A stretch of DNA of 6,791 bases from a virus (Duplodnaviria; Heunggongvirae; Uroviricota; Caudoviricetes), in the IMG/VR virus record IMGVR_UViG_2703718769_000011; one strand, written 5' to 3'. Numbering within the stretch: the first letter of the stretch is position 1; every line of letters starts with the position of its first letter. Shown piece after piece: positions 1-6,791 of the stretch. The notes beneath the pieces were generated by a model. It saw only the letters and a program-made list of their open reading frames with translations, ran no database searches and had not been told where the DNA came from. Both the position numbers and the translations under genes were made by a program.

Positions 1-218
1 TGGTATGGATGACGGATGGCTGGCCGCTGTATGAATCACGCCTGAAGGGAAAGCTGCACGTTATCAGCAAGCGTTACACTCAGCGCATTGAGCGACATAA
101 TCTGAATCTGAGACAACATCTGGCAAGGCTGGGACGGAAGTCACTGTCGTTCTCAAAATCGGTGGAGCTGCATGACAAGGTCATCGGGCATTATCTGAAC
201 ATAAAGCACTATCAGTAA
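1..218 (+). CDS. insB: IS1 transposase InsB, C-terminal portion (5' end outside the window)
   Basis: The translation ...[70 protein letters not shown] followed by TAA at 216..218 matches the InsB C-terminus as I recall it. The frame is open from the window edge (codons at 3..5, 6..8), so the ATG at 9 in the ORF track is internal, not the true start. Confidence 0.85.
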
Positions 219-233
219 GTTGGAGTCACTACC
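1..233 (+). mobile_element. IS1 insertion sequence, right-hand portion (element continues upstream of the window); terminal inverted repeat about 211..233
   Basis: Positions 211..233 (atcagtaagttggagtcactacc) match the IS1 terminal inverted repeat as I recall it (ATCAATAAGTTGGAGTCATTACC) with two mismatches and the characteristic ...ACC end. The upstream sequence encodes the C-terminal part of InsB. The exact boundary at 233 is from recall of the IS1 terminus. Confidence 0.85.
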
Positions 234-1392
234 CACGCTCTACAGATGGTTCAGCTTCCACCAGGATTTCATTTTTTTGAGTATCGGATTCTGCCGTCTC
301 CACTGGAGCAGTTTGTGCTGCTGACTGCTGGAGAGCATTAGCAGAGCTCTGGTCTGTTTCTTCATGTTCAAACACGCCCTTTGTCGTCAGGTATTCGCTG
401 ATATATTTGTTCAGTGCAACGGGATCTTTGTGAATATCGATCGGACGTTCGCGAACAAGGCCAAAAATAGTCTGACGGTCATAGGCAAGTGCTTCGGGCT
501 GTTTGCGCATTGATGCTGAGATACGCTTCCAGTCTTCGCGATCCTTGTCGATAACCTCATTTGTCGCCCAGCGATGGATGGTACCGTCAATGTTTCCTGC
601 ATCCACATCACCGGGCCAGAGGGCGCAGGCCAGTTCATTGTCGAGTGTTTTCCATGTCTGTTTGTATTCGCGGCGAATGGCAACAGTGACAGCCCCGGTT
701 TTTTCAGCAGCGTTTTCAGTGTTCTGTTGGTTGACTCTGGCGCGGGCGAGATCAACAACAGACGTGTATTTTCCGGTTTCCTTGCGTTCACCTTCGCGAC
801 GTTTTTTCCAGATGCGCATCTCTGCCTGAATTTCAGGCCATTTAGCGCCAGGCTCACATTTATTCTTAACCCACCCGATGGCATGCAGTTTAAGTTCAGG
901 ATACATGGCGTTAACTTCTGGCATTTTCATCAACGCTTCAACGATATGTCCGCCGAATGTTGCCATGTCTTCCTGTAGTAATTCCTGTGCGCTAATCACC
1001 ATATCAACGGTGATGTTTTCGCATGTGTCGAATTTAACCAGGACTGCGTTCTGTACTTCAGGGGACAGCTTGTCAAAATTGACGTTCATCGGATCGGATT
1101 CGGGTTCGACCGGGACAAAGGACGCAGACTCCTCATCCCAGCGGTTTTCCTGCATATATTCGGTATCCCAGGAATCGAGGGCAGGGCGGGGTATGCCGGG
1201 TTTATCCTCGCAGACAATAAATTTATAAGCGCAGTCCTGAGCTGCCGGGAATTGCTCCAGAAATTGCCAGTGAAATTTTGCGCGTGCGCGACGCTCATCA
1301 CCGGCTTCAATGGCAGTGGCCACCGCAACAGCGCTATCTTCTTCTATGGCCTGCTCGTCAGGAATAGCAGCGCAAATAAAGATTTTATTCAT
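229..1392 (-). CDS. Hypothetical acidic protein, 387 aa as read; the 3' end is fused to IS1, so it is probably C-terminally truncated
   Basis: Long ORF with ATG at 1392..1390 preceded by GAGGT 9 nt upstream. No motif I can assign. The stop TAG (229..231) and two bases of the last codon lie inside the IS1 terminal repeat. Last gene of the minus-strand block after the DicB-like and YdfD-like genes. Confidence 0.6.
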   Translation of the reverse strand: MNKIFICAAIPDEQAIEEDSAVAVATAIEAGDERRARAKFHWQFLEQFPAAQDCAYKFIVCEDKPGIPRPALDSWDTEYMQENRWDEESASFVPVEPESDPMNVNFDKLSPEVQNAVLVKFDTCENITVDMVISAQELLQEDMATFGGHIVEALMKMPEVNAMYPELKLHAIGWVKNKCEPGAKWPEIQAEMRIWKKRREGERKETGKYTSVVDLARARVNQQNTENAAEKTGAVTVAIRREYKQTWKTLDNELACALWPGDVDAGNIDGTIHRWATNEVIDKDREDWKRISASMRKQPEALAYDRQTIFGLVRERPIDIHKDPVALNKYISEYLTTKGVFEHEETDQSSANALQQSAAQTAPVETAESDTQKNEILVEAEPSVERG

Positions 1393-1487
1393 TGTGTTTT
1401 AACCTCATTACAGATTTCAGGGTGAACGAATCCCTGCCATTGCTGGCATTTTTAATCCGTTGGTATGGCGTTAATATGGCTGGCGGG

Positions 1488-1676
1488 TTATCCAGCCGGT
1501 GTTTCGTTATTCAGGTACAGCGATACTTTTTTTACCGGGAGGCATTCACCGGGGATTTTTTGTTCGTCCCTTACCTGAATGCAGGATGACTTACTGTCAT
1601 AAATTCCGGTAATCACATTCTGCGGCTCACCCGTTATAAGAAAAACGGTCATCACCAGTGCAAATGCTGAAGTCAT
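1488..1676 (-). CDS. Small membrane protein, 62 aa, YdfD-like (Qin-prophage small lysis protein family) candidate
   Basis: Its ATG overlaps the stop of the upstream DicB-like gene in an ATGA (1673..1676), implying translational coupling. The N-terminus MTSAFALVMTVFLITG is a hydrophobic transmembrane or signal-like segment. Size and position immediately after the dicB-like gene match the dicB-ydfD arrangement; I cannot recall the YdfD sequence, so the assignment is by context and architecture. Confidence 0.5.
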   Translation of the reverse strand: MTSAFALVMTVFLITGEPQNVITGIYDSKSSCIQVRDEQKIPGECLPVKKVSLYLNNETPAG

Positions 1677-1861
1677 TGACGTTCTCCGAAAATACCAAGT
1701 TTAATAAGGGCAATTCGGGAAAGAATGGAATTATCATTGAGCAGATAAGGCTCATATTTCCGCATATTAATGGCATCCTCAGTAAACGCTTTATTACTGA
1801 GCAGAACACCAATATCAAAACAACCTTCAGACGTATTAACGTTTGGTAATAACGTTTCCAT
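1673..1861 (-). CDS. dicB: DicB-like cell division inhibitor (62 aa)
   Basis: The translation METLLPNVNTSEGCFDIGVLLSNKAFTEDAINMRKYEPYLLNDN... closely resembles my recollection of E. coli DicB (starting MKTLLPNVNTSEGCF..., 62 aa). SD GAGGA lies 7 nt upstream of the ATG. It sits downstream of a DicF-like RNA, as in the Qin dicB operon. Confidence 0.75.
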   Translation of the reverse strand: METLLPNVNTSEGCFDIGVLLSNKAFTEDAINMRKYEPYLLNDNSILSRIALIKLGIFGERQ

Positions 1862-2038
1862 TATCGCGTCCTCAACAATGAATTTTGTGATGCAGTGCCT
1901 GGTGCCTCCAGGTGACGTTAACCAGTTAACAATTAACGCCGGATTGTTAGTTGATGTCTGTTACGCAAGTAAAAGACCGCTTGTTTTAACTGTTCCGCGT
2001 GCGCATAGCCGCATTCACCGCATCACAAAATTCACTTT

Positions 2039-2077
2039 AAAAAGGGCGGATATCCATTTCCGCCGAATCACCAGAAA
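2039..2077 (-). ncRNA. dicF: DicF-like small RNA (shortened variant) ending in an intrinsic terminator
   Basis: The minus strand reads UUUCUGGUGAUUCGGCGGAAAUGGAUAUCCGCCCUUUUU. The 5' UUUCUGGUGA matches the DicF seed as I recall it, and the 3' end is a GGCGGA/UCCGCC hairpin followed by a U-run. The following ...TTTTTAAAGTGAATTTTGTGATG also resembles sequence downstream of K-12 dicF. The dicB-like ATG lies about 175 nt downstream. Boundaries are approximate. Confidence 0.5.
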
Positions 2078-2440
2078 AGTGATAACAGAGGTTGTTGTGG
2101 CTGGGGTGTCACTTAAGCGTATGGTCAACCTGACAACCCGGTGTCCTCAACGGGGGAAGGAATAACCCCGCCATACTTACCGCCGCGCCATTTCGCGGAT
2201 TACCACAACCGGAAGCGCACGATCGAATTAAATTTAACGACGACCTATACAGAGAGACGAACTTCGCCGTGCGCTTTCGTGTTGTGTGCCTGCTTTAACC
2301 ACGTCAGGCGAGGTGGACTCGTTATTCCCCAACAACAAGGATCTTGTTAATCTGGATATCCACAACAAGAATAAGAGTATTCAGAGTGATCGCTGAATTA
2401 ACGGCAGCAATGGCGGCTATTCCTTAATTACCAGGCATCA

Positions 2441-2593
2441 TTAGTCAGAGTTTCTTGCTAACCAGCGATGCGCGCCAGCTTCGGTTTTAAACGTTTTACT
2501 TTTGGTATACGTCATCGCGGTAAACGTGCCGTCCTGGTTGGGGAAGACGCCGCACACCAGAGATTCATTGTTGCCAAGATTGAGCATATCCAT
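2441..2593 (-). CDS. Small prophage protein, 50 aa (below the ORF-track size cutoff); possibly YdfA/YdaF-like, first gene of the leftward operon
   Basis: ATG at 2593..2591 is preceded by TGAGGT with a 4-nt spacer. Translation: MDMLNLGNNESLVCGVFPNQDGTFTAMTYTKSKTFKTEAGAHRWLARNSD, stop TAA at 2441..2443. The family assignment is from context only (position relative to the dicF/dicB-like genes); I cannot recall a reference sequence. Confidence 0.5.
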   Translation of the reverse strand: MDMLNLGNNESLVCGVFPNQDGTFTAMTYTKSKTFKTEAGAHRWLARNSD

Positions 2594-2782
2594 GTTGACC
2601 TCATTTACCCTTAACGCCGGGTCGCGGAACTAAAAACCTGCTGCGCTGTTATACAAAGTGTTCCCGCCGTCATGTTCATACGCCTCGGGCTGGCTACTTA
2701 ACCCCTGACCACTGCCTGGTAACTCGAAGTATTGCCCTGCGTTCTGTGGGGCGGGGTGGGTTGATGAATATAATCTACAAGT

Positions 2783-2815
2783 AAAAACTGTTTGATGTCA
2801 ACAATAAATAACTGT
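2783..2815. promoter_or_regulatory. Candidate leftward operator/promoter (OL/PL-like)
   Basis: AAAAACTGTT-TGATGTC-AACAAT (2783..2805) resembles the 3818..3846 palindrome with the same 7-bp spacing, and a further AACTGTC lies at 2809..2815. On the minus strand a perfect TTGACA (-35, 2801..2796) is followed after 18 bp by TAGATT (-10, 2777..2772), pointing at the 50-aa gene. Confidence 0.35.
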
Positions 2816-2826
2816 CATTTTGGACG

Positions 2827-2851
2827 AAGAAAACTCCCTCATCAGTGGGAG
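2827..2851 (-). terminator. Possible weak intrinsic terminator after the toxin gene
   Basis: Minus strand CTCCC-ACTGATGA-GGGAG followed by TTTTCTTC, 15 nt after the toxin stop. The stem is only 5 bp. Confidence 0.3.
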
Positions 2852-2865
2852 CAAAAGCGGTGGGC

Positions 2866-3153
2866 TTAAAGATTAGCGGGGAATTGTCGACGGGCGTGAA
2901 CCACGTTTACAATTTCAATACCTGAAGTTGTCACCCGGTACAAAATTATGTAATTGGGGTGAGCCACAATCTCGCGCAAACCTGGCACTCTGTCGCTTGG
3001 CGGATATAAATACGGATGTTCGGATAACGGCAGGACGCAAGCTCTTAAGCGTTGCCATAAGCGTTCTGCCGCATCTATGTCGAAACGGGCAATATAACTA
3101 GTTATATCATCCAGATCGGTATCTGCGCTTTCAAGCCATAACACGGGTAACAT
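2866..3153 (-). CDS. parE: ParE/RelE-family type II toxin (ParE2-like), 95 aa
   Basis: The translation MLPVLWLESADTDLDDITSYIARFDIDAAERLWQRL...EIVAHPNYIILYRVTTSGIEIVNVVHARRQ has the size and pattern of RelE/ParE plasmid-stabilisation toxins. Its ATG directly follows the antitoxin stop (TAA-ATG at 3156..3151). Confidence 0.8.
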   Translation of the reverse strand: MLPVLWLESADTDLDDITSYIARFDIDAAERLWQRLRACVLPLSEHPYLYPPSDRVPGLREIVAHPNYIILYRVTTSGIEIVNVVHARRQFPANL

Positions 3154-3345
3154 TTACTGCTCTCTCCGTTCCTTGCGAATTTTGGCAAAGCGTTCTGCCA
3201 TTCTGCGCTCAACTTCATCATGTGGAATAGCAGGACGTGGATCAGCAAGGCTTGCGGCTACTTTTGCGCGTAACCATTCGTTATAACTGTTTTCTTGCTC
3301 AACGGTTTCAAATTCAGAAACCATTGGTGAAAGGGCTGTATTCAT
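3154..3345 (-). CDS. Small antitoxin, 63 aa, PaaA2-like (ParE-associated antitoxin)
   Basis: ATG at 3345..3343 is preceded by a strong SD AAGAGGAGG with a 6-nt spacer. The ORF-track start at 3408 has no SD and would overlap the repressor stop. Translation: MNTALSPMVSEFETVEQENSYNEWLRAKVAASLADPRPAIPHDEVERRMAERFAKIRKERREQ, charged and probably disordered. It sits immediately upstream of the ParE-like toxin; the size matches the 63-aa PaaA2 of the described paaR2-paaA2-parE2 system as I recall it. Confidence 0.65.
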   Translation of the reverse strand: MNTALSPMVSEFETVEQENSYNEWLRAKVAASLADPRPAIPHDEVERRMAERFAKIRKERREQ

Positions 3346-3374
3346 GACATACCTCCTCTTACAGGTGGTAGAGA

Positions 3375-3776
3375 TTACGCTCGGTGCCCCTTTTGGGCTG
3401 CGATCCACCGAGCAACAGTTTCTTCCATTGACTTTTTCTTATTTTTTATTTCCTGAAGCATTTTTTCTTGGTCTTCATCGGGAAATGCACTAAAAGCTTG
3501 GAGCAATTCACGTTGGCGAGGGCCAATTTTCATCGTGTCAGGAGTAAAAATTTGCTCTCCCTCTTCTGGAGGTAATAAAAACCAATGTAGTGGATGCCCT
3601 GTAACCTCGACCAACTTATCTAAGCTGGAGGCTTTAGGTGTGGCTTTTCCACTGACCCATTGCTGAACAGTTTGCTGTGTCACACCGACTCTACGAGCAA
3701 GTTCAGCTTGGCTCCATCCTGTTTCTTTGAGGAGCCTGCTAATTCTGTACATAGATACTTCTAGGGCCTTCATCAT
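3375..3776 (-). CDS. HTH (XRE/cI-type) transcriptional repressor, DicA/PaaR2-like; candidate prophage immunity repressor
   Basis: N-terminal helix-turn-helix SQAELARRVGVTQQTVQQWVSG. The C-terminal part (IGPRQRELLQAFSAFPDEDQEKMLQEI) resembles the DicA C-terminal region as I recall it. Divergent from the Cro-like gene across an operator-bearing intergenic region. The start could be ATG 3776 (no SD, possibly leaderless) or the internal ATG at 3752. Confidence 0.8.
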   Translation of the reverse strand: MMKALEVSMYRISRLLKETGWSQAELARRVGVTQQTVQQWVSGKATPKASSLDKLVEVTGHPLHWFLLPPEEGEQIFTPDTMKIGPRQRELLQAFSAFPDEDQEKMLQEIKNKKKSMEETVARWIAAQKGHRA

Positions 3777-3884
3777 TATTCGATTTTACAGGTAAATACT
3801 GTTAAAAGCACCACAATAAAAAACTGTTGATCATGAACAGTTTTTTATTGTAGCCTTTATCTATGAACTTCAGAGGAGGGCAAC
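3777..3884. promoter_or_regulatory. Divergent operator/promoter region (OR-like) between the repressor and Cro-like genes
   Basis: Perfect 11-bp inverted repeat AAAAAACTGTT-GATCATG-AACAGTTTTTT at 3818..3846, plus another ACTGTT at 3798..3803. SD GAGGAGGG at 3874..3880 serves the Cro-like ATG at 3885. A minus-strand TAAAAT at 3788..3783 sits just upstream of the repressor ATG, suggesting a leaderless transcript. Confidence 0.6.
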
Positions 3885-4145
3885 ATGCTCAATAGCACCC
3901 GTGAAAAAATTAAGCAGAAATACACACAGGCTGAAATAGGACGCTATATGGGAGTAACCCAACAAACTGTTTGGCAATGGTTTAGCTTGGGTATTCCTCC
4001 CAAACAGGTAATCCCTTTATGCCAACTAATGCAGTGGGGGGTTACTCCTCACGAACTCCGACCTGATATTTATCCTAACCCAACAGACGGCTTGCCTGCT
4101 GAGTTTCAGACTAGCACACAGCCAGCGACGGGAGTTGATTCATGA
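3885..4145 (+). CDS. Cro-like HTH protein (YdaS-like), 86 aa
   Basis: HTH QAEIGRYMGVTQQTVWQWFSLG, strong SD, first gene of the rightward operon. Its stop overlaps the next start in an ATGA (4142..4145). Confidence 0.7.
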   Translation: MLNSTREKIKQKYTQAEIGRYMGVTQQTVWQWFSLGIPPKQVIPLCQLMQWGVTPHELRPDIYPNPTDGLPAEFQTSTQPATGVDS

Positions 4146-4567
4146 AAATCAAGCATGAGCACATCCGCATGGCGATGAATGCCTGGGCATATCCTGACGG
4201 TGAGAAAGTTCCCGCAGCTGAAATAGCCCGGACTTATTTCGAACTGGGGATGACGTTCCCGGAACTGTACGACGACACTCATCCTGAGGCCCTGGCTCGT
4301 AATACCCAGAAAATTTTCCGTTGGCTGGATAAAGACACCCATGATGCTGTTGAAAAAATTCAGGCTCTGTTACCGGCGATCGAAAAGGCGATGCCGCCTT
4401 TGCTGGTGGCCCGTATGCGCAGTCACAGTTCTGAGTACTACCGGGAGATTGTCGAACGGCGGGATCGGCTGGTGAAGGATGTCGACGATTTTGTTGCGTC
4501 AGCGGTCGTTTTGTATGACCAGATAAATCGCGGCGGCCCGGCAGGGAATGCTGTGGTGATGCACTAA
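4142..4567 (+). CDS. ydaT: YdaT-like protein (CII-like regulator family; historically annotated toxin YdaT), 141 aa
   Basis: The translation begins MKIKHEHI..., which matches my recollection of Rac-prophage YdaT. It is translationally coupled to the Cro-like gene and has SD GGGAG 7 nt upstream. Confidence 0.6.
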   Translation: MKIKHEHIRMAMNAWAYPDGEKVPAAEIARTYFELGMTFPELYDDTHPEALARNTQKIFRWLDKDTHDAVEKIQALLPAIEKAMPPLLVARMRSHSSEYYREIVERRDRLVKDVDDFVASAVVLYDQINRGGPAGNAVVMH

Positions 4568-4589
4568 AAGCACGGTGTTCGGGGGTTTT

Positions 4590-5558
4590 ATGAGCAGCAA
4601 GCTTCATGGTCTTGTCTGGGAAGGATGCGCCTTCACTGGCATGATCTTATCAAGGGTGGCAGTAATGGCCCGTCTTGCAGATTACAGCAATGACGAGGGG
4701 GTGTCATGGCCTGCTATGGAAACGATCCGGCGTCAGATCGGTGCCAGAAGTGAATCCACCGTGAAATCTGCGATTGCAGAACTGGCGAAAGAGGGCTGGC
4801 TGACGAAGGAAGAGCGTAAGATCGGTGGGCGTAACGTAAGCAATATCTATCGGCTTAATGTGGAAAAACTCGAAGCAGCGGCAGCGGCGGCGCGTGAGGC
4901 ATATAAACCGAAAAGAAAAATTAGCCCGGCAAAAAATGACCCGTTAACAGTTGACCCGTCAAATATTGACCCCTCAACGGTTGACCCGTCAAATTCTGAG
5001 GGGTCAACCATTGATAAAAAACAGCCGATTAGGGGGGCGATGATTGACCCCGATCCGTCAGTATTAAAACCTGATCCGTCAGATAAAAGATCTTCTTGTC
5101 CGGACGTTTCACTTCCGGACGAAAAAAAATCATCTCCGGTTGAACGCTTTCTGGATAAACACCCTGATGCGCATACGTGGAATGTGCCGAAGCGACAGTG
5201 GGGAACCCGTGATGATATTACCTGTGCGCAGTGGATCTGGGGGCGTGTTGTTGCGCTGTATGAACACGCAGCCAGTGATGATGGTGAGGTTTCTCGCCCC
5301 AGAGAGCCAAACTGGACGACATGGGCTAACGATGTCCGGATGATGCGCATGCTGGATGGCCGCAGTCACCGGCAGATTTGTGAAATGTTCAGTCGGGTGC
5401 AGCGGGATCCGTTCTGGGTAAAAAATATCATGAGTCCGGCAAAACTGCGCGAAAAATGGGATGAACTGGTCATTCGTCTTGGGCGTGGGCCTGCGCAGAG
5501 TTGCGTGAATCATATTTCTGAACCGGACACTGAAATTCCACCGGGTTTCAGGGGGTAA
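4590..5558 (+). CDS. Phage replication initiation protein (O-like): N-terminal winged-HTH domain, iteron-encoded linker, DnaT-like C-terminal tail
   Basis: The N-terminus (from the ATG at 4590, GGGGG just upstream; the ORF-track start at 4575 is a GTG) has an HTH-like region ...VSWPAMETIRRQIGARSESTVKSAIAELAKEGWL. The C-terminus ...SEPDTEIPPGFRG matches the E. coli DnaT C-terminus (...SEPDSQIPPGFRG) as I recall it. Direct repeats lie inside the coding sequence. Immediately upstream of the DnaC-like gene. Confidence 0.75.
   Translation: MSSKLHGLVWEGCAFTGMILSRVAVMARLADYSNDEGVSWPAMETIRRQIGARSESTVKSAIAELAKEGWLTKEERKIGGRNVSNIYRLNVEKLEAAAAAAREAYKPKRKISPAKNDPLTVDPSNIDPSTVDPSNSEGSTIDKKQPIRGAMIDPDPSVLKPDPSDKRSSCPDVSLPDEKKSSPVERFLDKHPDAHTWNVPKRQWGTRDDITCAQWIWGRVVALYEHAASDDGEVSRPREPNWTTWANDVRMMRMLDGRSHRQICEMFSRVQRDPFWVKNIMSPAKLREKWDELVIRLGRGPAQSCVNHISEPDTEIPPGFRG
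4936..5007. repeat. Candidate replication-origin iterons inside the O-like gene
   Basis: Four copies of TTGACCC(G/C)TCAA or its inverted form start at 4951, 4966, 4981 and 4996 (15-bp period), with an imperfect fifth at about 4937..4948. An A-rich stretch follows (5013..5022) and a more distant related copy lies at about 5044..5060. Confidence 0.6.
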
Positions 5559-5564
5559 CTGACC

Positions 5565-6317
5565 ATGAAAGATATCGCGACAGTTGCAGTTGGTGTTCTG
5601 GAACGCATCCGCAGACTGGCTCCTGAGCACGTTCCCGTGCCGTACAGTACGACGGAGGAGTGGCGCGAGTGGCAACTTGCCGAAGGCCGGAAATACTGCG
5701 AGGAGATTAACCGCCGGAATCGTCAGTTGCGGGTGGAAAAAATCCTGAACCGTTCGGGCATCCAGCCGCTGCACCGCAAATGTTCGTTCGCGAATTACCA
5801 GGTGCGGAACGACGGGCAGAAACATGCGCTGAGCCAGGCTAAATCCATCGCTGAGGAAATGATGACCGGTTATACAAACTTCGTGTTCAGCGGGAATCCG
5901 GGAACCGGAAAAAATCATCTGGCGGCGGCTGTGGGTAATCGTCTGCTGAAGGCTGGTAAATCCGTGATAGTGGTCACCGTGGCGGATGTGATGAGCGCGT
6001 TACATGCCAGCTATGACGACGGGCTGTCAGGGGAAAAATTTTTGCGTGAACTGTGCGAAGTGGACCTCCTGGTTCTTGACGAAATTGGCATCCAGCGTGA
6101 GACGAAAAACGAGCAGGTGGTACTGCACCAGATTGTTGACCGCCGGACGGCATCACTGTGCAGTGTCGGGATGCTGACAAACCTGAATCATGCCGCAATG
6201 AGCACGCTTCTTGGTGAGAGGATTATGGACAGGATGACCATGAACGGTGGTCGCTGGGTGAGTTTTAACTGGGAAAGCTGGCGTCCCAATGTCAGCCATC
6301 TGAGAGTATTGAAGTAA
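5565..6317 (+). CDS. DnaC-family helicase loader (phage-encoded DnaC paralog), 250 aa
   Basis: Walker [14 protein letters not shown] and Walker [10 protein letters not shown]. There is extended similarity to E. coli DnaC as I recall it (NRSGI.PLH..CSF.NY, ...GMLTN.N...LLGER.MDRM, ...FNW.S). SD GGGGG lies 8 nt upstream. Confidence 0.85.
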
Positions 6318-6339: not shown

Positions 6340-6791
6340 ATGGAAACCGTTTTTGACGCACTGAAAGCACTGAAAAGAGCCTCTTCACAGGTAGTGGCGG
6401 CCCGCCTTGGAATCAGCCGTGAAGATGCGGTCAACGAACTGTGGAAACTGAAGCGCCGTGGTGAAGCGGATAACAAGGGGTCGATGTGGTGGCTGATTCA
6501 GGCTGGTGAAAGTGAACCTGTGTCACAGGTACCGAAAGTGACAGCGCAAATGCTGACTGAGGCGATTGAACAACATGGCCCACAAACGGCGGATGAACTG
6601 GCACTGATGTTCGGAATTACCTCCCGCCGGGCGAATTCATCGCTGGCGATGGCAATCAGCAAAGGGCGTCTGATTCGCGTGAATCAGGGCGGTAAATTTC
6701 GTTACTGCATACCGGGCGCTGATTTACCGGCAGAGCCGGAAGCTGCATCCGTAGCGGAAACGGATGGTAAAGCCTTTCCTCAGCCAGCAGG
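6340..6791 (+). CDS. Hypothetical protein, 3'-truncated by the window end (150 codons visible, not in the ORF track)
   Basis: ATG at 6340 is preceded by SD GGAGGA (6327..6332). The frame stays open to the window end. Translation starts [43 protein letters not shown]... and has a second similar segment ([32 protein letters not shown]). Confidence 0.55.

Follow-up and report, generated by a model that had tools for sequence, protein, structure and literature searches.

A short dicF allele ahead of dicB in lambdoid prophages of Escherichia coli: a predicted terminator lacking the ftsZ-pairing module

DicF, the classic prophage small RNA blocking cell division, has been tied to the virulence of EHEC via pchA. 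The window analysed here (the whole stretch of DNA, 6,791 nt in length, from IMG/VR virus record IMGVR_UViG_2703718769_000011) carries on its minus strand an element that begins as DicF begins and closes with a terminator-like hairpin, the two joined by fewer nucleotides than in K-12. Is this still dicF and, if so, which of the activities of DicF could it exert? We propose that the element, here termed S, is a deletion-derived dicF allele that acts as a terminator or attenuator before dicB, probably giving rise to an RNA of about 39 nt that is devoid of ftsZ control and has lost most of its pairing to xylR and pykA. We assign this reading a probability of roughly 0.58.

Pfam matches identify the surroundings of S as the immunity region of a Qin/Sp4-type lambdoid prophage. 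Downstream of S on the minus strand lies dicB (1673..1861), which encodes a cell-division inhibitor of 62 aa (Pfam DicB, 121.4 bits; 65% identity to K-12 DicB; dicB in RefSeq), followed by a ydfD-like DUF1482 gene that overlaps its end (1488..1676, minus strand; Pfam, 57.3 bits). The first gene of the operon, a ydfA-like DUF1391 gene, is found on the other side of S (2441..2593, minus strand; Pfam, 102 bits), and comparison with K-12 indicates that ydfB and ydfC are missing from the operon. Upstream of ydfA, a promoter-like TTGACA-18-TAGATT sequence (2772..2801, minus strand; 10/12 matches in a consensus scan) is a candidate for the dicB-operon promoter; this site, a consensus match only, aligns with a similar one in the locus of O157 strain 86-24. 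The remaining minus-strand genes encode an HTH repressor (3776 to 3375), a PaaA2/RelB-type antitoxin paired with a ParE-family toxin (3408 to 2866), all assigned by Pfam, and an exonuclease past the ydfD-like gene; ydaS- and ydaT-like genes and replication genes occupy the plus strand. From 234 to 5650, the window is 99.98% identical to E. coli OkiPb01678, which came from bovine faeces. Judged by gene order and alignment, S sits where dicF belongs in the dicB operon (ydfA - leader - dicF - dicB - ydfD) in a lambdoid prophage of the Qin/Sp4/Sp14 type.

The K-12 Qin prophage, with dicF annotated at positions 2383-2435 of locus L003, served as the reference for alignment. About 250 nt upstream of the element and about 170 nt downstream are conserved between the two, the latter including the dicF-dicB spacer, and the ends of the slot are those of K-12 dicF: DicF nt 1-10, the basal stem GGCGG/CCGCC, a C, U5 and then AAAGUGAAUUUUGUGAUG are identical. 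Between these shared ends K-12 reads CG-UUU...UAUCAGUUUUACUCCGUGACUGCUCUG and the window UUC...AAAUGGAUAU. Thus, the 27-nt K-12 interior UAUCAGUUUUACUCCGUGACUGCUCUG has been swapped for AAAUGGAUAU and the CG after nt 10 is missing, which on balance shortens the element by 19 nt. Read from 2078 to 2039, the minus strand is uUUUCUGGUGAUUCGGCGGAAAUGGAUAUCCGCCCUUUUU, in which the S-specific segment is GGCGGAAAUGGAUAUCCGCC, and the predicted RNA, UUUCUGGUGAUUCGGCGGAAAUGGAUAUCCGCCCUUUUU (2039..2077, minus strand), measures 39 nt on the presumption that its 5' end corresponds to the RNase E end of K-12 DicF. Its 5' tail (2068..2077, minus strand) equals DicF nt 1-10, and the match extends to nt 11 (U) once the CG deletion is allowed for; set against the K-12 5' end UUUCUGGUGACGUUU, and with the position of the S 5' end assumed, nt 1-11 are the same and nt 12-15 differ because of that deletion. 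A preliminary description, drawn from the letters of the sequence, had proposed a shortened relative of DicF at the locus of dicF, with the first ten nucleotides of K-12 DicF and with a dicB-like gene some 175 nt downstream as in Qin. The alignment bears out each of these points, the distance from the U-tract to the dicB start being 177 nt in the window versus 174 nt in K-12.

In addition to these features, S shares with K-12 Qin DicF (RF00039) its place in the operon, flanked by ydf genes and dicB, and a predicted precursor hairpin of comparable form at the RNase E site. The differences, beyond length, are that the upper stem and loop, with the ftsZ-complementary ACUCCGUGACUGCUCUG, have given way to a 10-nt loop and that the absence of CG after nt 10 leaves a shorter xylR seed. 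The element lies within the dicB operon, 3' of ydfA and 5' of dicB, between conserved flanks, and this synteny makes it allelic to dicF despite the lack of any match to the Rfam model. On the strength of its position and alignment, the element is an allele of the dicF locus and no chance look-alike.

The predicted folds explain what was lost. K-12 DicF folds as a single bipartite hairpin, its basal stem separated by an internal loop from an upper stem that ends in an apical loop; of these elements S retains the basal stem alone. The earlier suggestion that one internal stem-loop had disappeared was therefore right as to the shortening of the RNA and wrong as to its structure, since the upper half and loop of one hairpin were replaced. 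The minimal terminator hairpin of S (2045..2064, minus strand) consists of a GGCGG(A) stem, the loop AAUGGAUA and (U)CCGCC; the terminator consensus scan places the stem at 2064 to 2045, with six pairs, five of them G-C, around an 8-nt loop, followed by CTTTTTAAAG. The U5 tract (2039..2043, minus strand) begins one base past the stem, so that CTTTTT follows the hairpin, and is itself followed by AAAG as in K-12. By sequence, S thus has the G+C-rich stem-loop and adjoining U-tract of an intrinsic terminator, in keeping with the clean terminator first noticed at its 3' end; termination activity is predicted. Sites resembling terminators are no more frequent in the region than expected (2 observed versus 2.7). 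Folded alone, S forms a hairpin of -10.7 kcal/mol and leaves its first 13 nt unpaired. Fold prediction also yields a precursor hairpin, AUCACU-UUUCU-GGUGAU (2067..2083, minus strand), in which the point equivalent to RNase E cleavage in K-12 falls at the boundary between the 5' arm and the loop. In K-12 and in allele D (see below) the equivalent predicted hairpin has 8 bp, with the cut site in the loop, and in all three the hairpin carries a UUUUC RNase E-type site.

A match to the Rfam DicF covariance model had been put forward as a check on the proposal, with the lack of one counting against it and, at face value, that is what the search returned. The model (RF00039; gathering threshold, 48 bits) gave no match at E<=10 on the whole window or on the 161-nt stretch 1980-2140, and none at gathering for S in O157:H7 86-24, strain 05-3629 or E. 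albertii; the positive controls, K-12 dicF and an allele designated A', scored 76.7 and 61.1 bits, respectively. The model fails on S because half of the model positions have been lost, and the null result is one of divergence beyond the model and no sign of non-homology. Annotation is equally silent: in RefSeq genomes annotated with PGAP no feature underlies even the canonical dicF copies ('none' at every match), and the curated K-12 MG1655 record alone annotates dicF. With canonical copies omitted, a missing annotation is uninformative for any RNA of the DicF type. S escapes both the Rfam model and RefSeq annotation. Weak matches to miRNA and snoRNA families elsewhere in the window were rejected as spurious.

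Which targets could such an RNA still reach? The conserved ten 5' nucleotides had been taken for the ftsZ seed, an assignment contradicted by work on K-12 DicF with mutations and compensatory changes (Balasubramanian et al. 2016, PMC5069750). There, ftsZ control was abolished in DicF9 and survived in DicF3, a 5' mutant, which assigns pairing with ftsZ to the 3' region; xylR is bound by the 5' end, and control of pykA needs both regions (DicF3 and DicF23). It follows that the part absent from S is the ftsZ module and, in the alignment, the central and 3' region complementary to the ftsZ ribosome-binding site is indeed gone. In co-folds of each RNA with the K-12 targets (from -60/-70 to +40/+50), scored as ddG, the energies are crude, and mononucleotide-shuffled sRNA controls proved uninformative, since shuffling destroys the hairpin and inflates control binding; the values are to be compared from allele to allele only. 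On this basis, predicted pairing with ftsZ falls from about -14 kcal/mol for K-12 DicF to about -5 kcal/mol for S, with xylR from -15.3 (10 bp, nt 6-15) to -7.9 (6 bp) and with pykA from -15 to -4.5. The direction of the change follows directly from the sequence. An altered target range, also raised at the outset, is accordingly plausible as worded, with the qualification that the alteration is chiefly loss. Two sites in pchA of strain Sakai behave differently: at +98, ACCAGAAA is a perfect 8-nt complement of DicF nt 1-8 and, at +157, UCACCGG beside an ACUCCG anti-SD forms 7 bp with DicF nt 4-10, the predicted duplex energy at both being equal for S and K-12 DicF. A search within the window for cis targets of the S seed or loop returned nothing over shuffled background save the antisense strand of the element itself.

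A comparison of the slot across prophages places S among a set of alternatives. An IMG/VR scan anchored on the conserved flanks GGTTGACCATACGC and TGAATTTTGTGATG revealed at least six allele classes (A, A', B, C, D and S; loci L003, L032 and L150-L266), which pair two kinds of 5' end with at least five hairpins, in addition to occasional deletion derivatives with gap lengths of 75 and 90. Allele A, that of K-12 DicF, combines the DicF seed with the ftsZ module and is present at 6401 places in 3969 of 5,426 complete E. coli genomes. A' has a different 5' end, the same ftsZ module and a compensatory GGUGG/CCACC basal stem (317 places, 296 genomes). D unites the DicF seed with a third hairpin (294 places, 290 genomes), and B (144 places, 108 genomes) and C (130 places, 127 genomes) have 5' ends unlike the DicF seed, each with a hairpin of its own. 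S, with the DicF seed and a bare basal hairpin, is the second commonest slot allele among the complete E. coli genomes. The Rfam threshold is reached by A and A' only, B, C and D being unannotated sRNA-like terminator hairpins. Several classes may reside in one genome, as in O157:H7 PV15-279, which has two copies of A and one each of D and S.

The other alleles share with S the flanks, the basal stem and the U-tract; they differ in that each has its own upper stem and loop, A' is without the UUUCUGGUGA seed, and S is the sole class with a bare basal hairpin, which is also the weakest (-10.7 versus -15.8 to -21 kcal/mol in the others). The basal stem and U-tract are the only feature common to all six classes, and this universality suggests that the constraint they share is termination before dicB. 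D and S have a 5' module in common, and their 3' arms are similar: in a short alignment, the S 3' part AAAUGGAUAUCCGCC aligns with GAACUGAUGUCCGCC of D. Most likely, to judge from this resemblance, S arose by internal deletion from a D-like allele with the same 5' module and a 3' arm of the GAUGUCCGCC type.

The distribution of S was determined with an S-specific 44-nt query, which located the allele at 466 places in 418 of the 5,426 complete E. coli genomes, most of the 418 carriers being clonal O157:H7. Carriers include O157:H7 86-24 and Xuzhou21, as well as non-O157 strains from cattle, humans, a crow and a mouse; O113:H21, O91 and O104:H21 are among the serotypes. In Sakai, S is found at 2,707,677 in prophage Sp14, between ECs_2767 (ydfA-like) and ECs_2768 (dicB); Sp14 is integrated at serU and also bears espJ, tccP and pchC. 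The E. albertii type strain possesses S with one loop change, and in a scan of genome contigs with a permitted gap of 10-40 nt (3 nt short of the long allele) the E. albertii match was true and the rest were mostly chance matches in unrelated phyla. None of 50,697 deposited phage genomes contains S, which is thus known from resident prophages only. Four Rfam-derived DicF copies of 52-56 nt have been listed for EDL933, at 1.26, 1.88, 2.16 and 2.33 Mb (PMC5331693), and a review ascribes four dicF copies to Sakai and 86-24 (PMC7873438). As the EDL933 copies are longer than S and at other positions, the Sp14-type locus represents an additional, uncounted DicF relative, one overlooked in EHEC (Sakai, 86-24 and Xuzhou21). 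A literature text search for the S sequence and for descriptions of the 'DicF-like', 'variant' or 'truncated' kind yielded nothing relevant.

Of 28 loci of the S class, 26 have an intact dicB at a constant distance, the DicB proteins being 68-100% identical, and the allele was found with two different upstream sequences. Variation is confined to the loop (AAAUGG, AAACGG, AAAUGA), the base after the stem and the stem, where the changes (GGUGG, CCGCU and one disruptive GGCAG) are mostly wobble-compatible; almost every copy retains an intact stem and U-tract. Together with the predicted precursor hairpin, these observations speak for function as an RNA, and the clonality of most carriers speaks against it. 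S is not conserved above its surroundings, the leader and spacer being equally conserved, so no RNA-specific selection is demonstrable.

In the mechanism that we favour, transcripts from the operon promoter would terminate in part at S, the hairpin being weaker than those of its counterparts, and S would mainly function as an attenuator limiting read-through into the toxic dicB. Cleavage by RNase E at the conserved UUUUC of the small precursor hairpin would free an RNA of about 39 nt that should be incapable of antisense inhibition of ftsZ and could pair only weakly with xylR and pykA, with any residual regulation confined to the 5' UUUCUGGUGA seed. The proposed arrangement, in which RNase E generates the 5' end, the 5' seed is unpaired and the terminator lies inside the operon, has parallels in SroC and CpxQ, which belong to the 3' UTR and intra-operon sRNAs (reviewed in PMC9438474); S differs in that its putative seed extends only some 11-13 nt before a weak hairpin.

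A more active role for the RNA is conceivable, if rather unlikely. Here, S would be a compact DicF that binds Hfq via its terminator and U-tail and regulates through nt 1-11, with targets such as pchA in EHEC or mRNAs having ACCAGAAA or UCACCAG motifs. Control of metabolism or virulence would thereby be uncoupled from the repression of ftsZ. The 5' 11 nt, the predicted precursor hairpin with its RNase E-type site, the terminator and U5 have all been kept, as this explanation would have it, and the pchA complements at +98 and +157 are bound by S as well as by K-12 DicF in prediction; the company of pchC, tccP and espJ at the Sakai Sp14 locus, the retention of S beside dicB variants as divergent as 68% and its occurrence in E. 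albertii can be read in the same way. Against it, xylR, the validated 5'-end target of K-12 DicF, loses four of its ten base pairs, the S hairpin is the weakest among the alleles and the S sequence did not turn up in the literature text search.

Less likely still is the notion of S as an inert relic: dicF would have decayed to the point where termination serves no purpose and no active RNA is made, and the conserved operon leader would carry the remains along. Flanks at least as conserved as S would permit such hitch-hiking, S is absent from every deposited phage genome searched, and the gaps of 75 and 90 mark other evident deletion derivatives in the slot. A relic is not, however, expected to maintain its stem and U-tract in nearly all copies with mostly wobble-compatible stem changes, and with dicB intact in nearly every S locus, read-through into a toxic gene still needs control. 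Finally, the idea that an ordinary terminator stands behind a 10-mer that happens to match DicF draws on the silent Rfam model and on the small information content of that 10-mer (TTTCTGGTGA, with a single exact copy in the window at 2068-2077 on the minus strand and 0.51 one-mismatch matches expected by chance per window, so that it alone is little proof), and is ruled out by the K-12 Qin alignment, given the exact orthologous position, the conserved flanks, slot ends equal to those of K-12 dicF and dicB downstream.

If S is a terminator only, it constitutes a natural separation-of-function allele, with the seed and terminator and without the ftsZ module, useful for telling which DicF phenotypes depend on ftsZ. 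If it is expressed, deleting 'all four dicF copies' leaves behind a seed-bearing relative. The slot as such illustrates how prophages swap sRNA modules inside a fixed frame for processing and termination. A broader proposal, which we consider speculative and improbable as a whole, is that the dicF position is a modular sRNA cassette, with a constant leader, basal stem and dicB leader and with interchangeable seeds and apical modules, in which S is expressed, bound by Hfq and directed at targets of the pchA type and not at ftsZ. Were this so, O157:H7 would have a fifth, uncounted DicF-type regulator in Sp14 beside pchC and tccP.

Upstream of the slot lies a conserved and apparently structured leader of about 170 nt (2116..2286, minus strand). 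A consensus fold of 25 loci contains 43 pairs, five of them with double changes, and includes a helix of about 21 bp, an invariant CCGCG-AAAUGG-CGCGG hairpin and a long-range GGUAAGUAUGGC/GACCAUACGC helix, which encloses a variable hairpin with GGGG/CCCC to GAGG/CCUC changes. The single-sequence fold has a z-score of -2.07, and the leader belongs to no Rfam family. Akin to the prophage loci, the ban operon of phage P1 possesses the same structured leader in its 'dicF-like region' (76-82% identity), where a U-A pair of the long-range helix has become C-G, a compensatory change; it differs in that the segment past the leader has neither the S hairpin nor a clear DicF, and tRNA genes and ban follow in place of dicB. 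Possible roles for the leader are those of an RNase III substrate, of a platform for processing or of an antitermination element. As regards an antiterminator of the HK022 put type, a distant BLAST search against phages produced no HK022 record among the matches listed.

Just upstream of the leader (2299-2316, minus strand), each locus has one of two alternative small hairpins, CCACCUCGCCUGACGUGG in the window and CCCUGAAAAGUCAGGG in K-12-like loci (the equivalent position in, for example, L005 and L040); the latter presumably resembles the lambdoid boxB (nut) hairpin. On the other side of the slot, some prophages (L156, 4593-4781; L152, 4732-4920) have genes for isrK and the C4 antisense RNA (Rfam, 59.6-78 bits), a juxtaposition that ties the dicF slot to antirepressor control modules of the P1/P7 immI-like type. 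The dicF-dicB spacer and dicB leader of the window (1829..2046, minus strand) are STnc100-like by Rfam, scoring 33.4 bits relative to a gathering threshold of 47 (E = 1.7e-4). The STnc100 'copies' annotated in EHEC genomes are probably dicB-type lambdoid leaders and not independent sRNA genes.

Several minor features of the window remain to be recorded. The ParE/PaaA2 pair is situated between the repressor and the dicB-operon promoter region, as in O157 Sakai Sp4 (ECs_1067/1068), and a terminator-like hairpin (2852 to 2833) follows the ParE-family toxin gene. The intergenic region of the repressor and a cro-like gene harbours a near-perfect long inverted repeat (3798-3872, ACAAUAAAAAACUGUU...AACAGUUUUUUAUUGU), which probably comprises operators and is the source of spurious microRNA-family matches in Rfam. 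At the left end, positions 1-233 correspond to the 3' portion of a gene for IS1 transposase (Pfam DDE_Tnp_IS1, 126.6 bits), and identity to OkiPb01678 ends at base 234. The exonuclease ORF (229-1392) encodes 387 aa here, as against a 2,472-nt gene in OkiPb01678 and, from the IS1 sequence and the stop in identity, appears to have been cut by an IS1 insertion in the source of the window.
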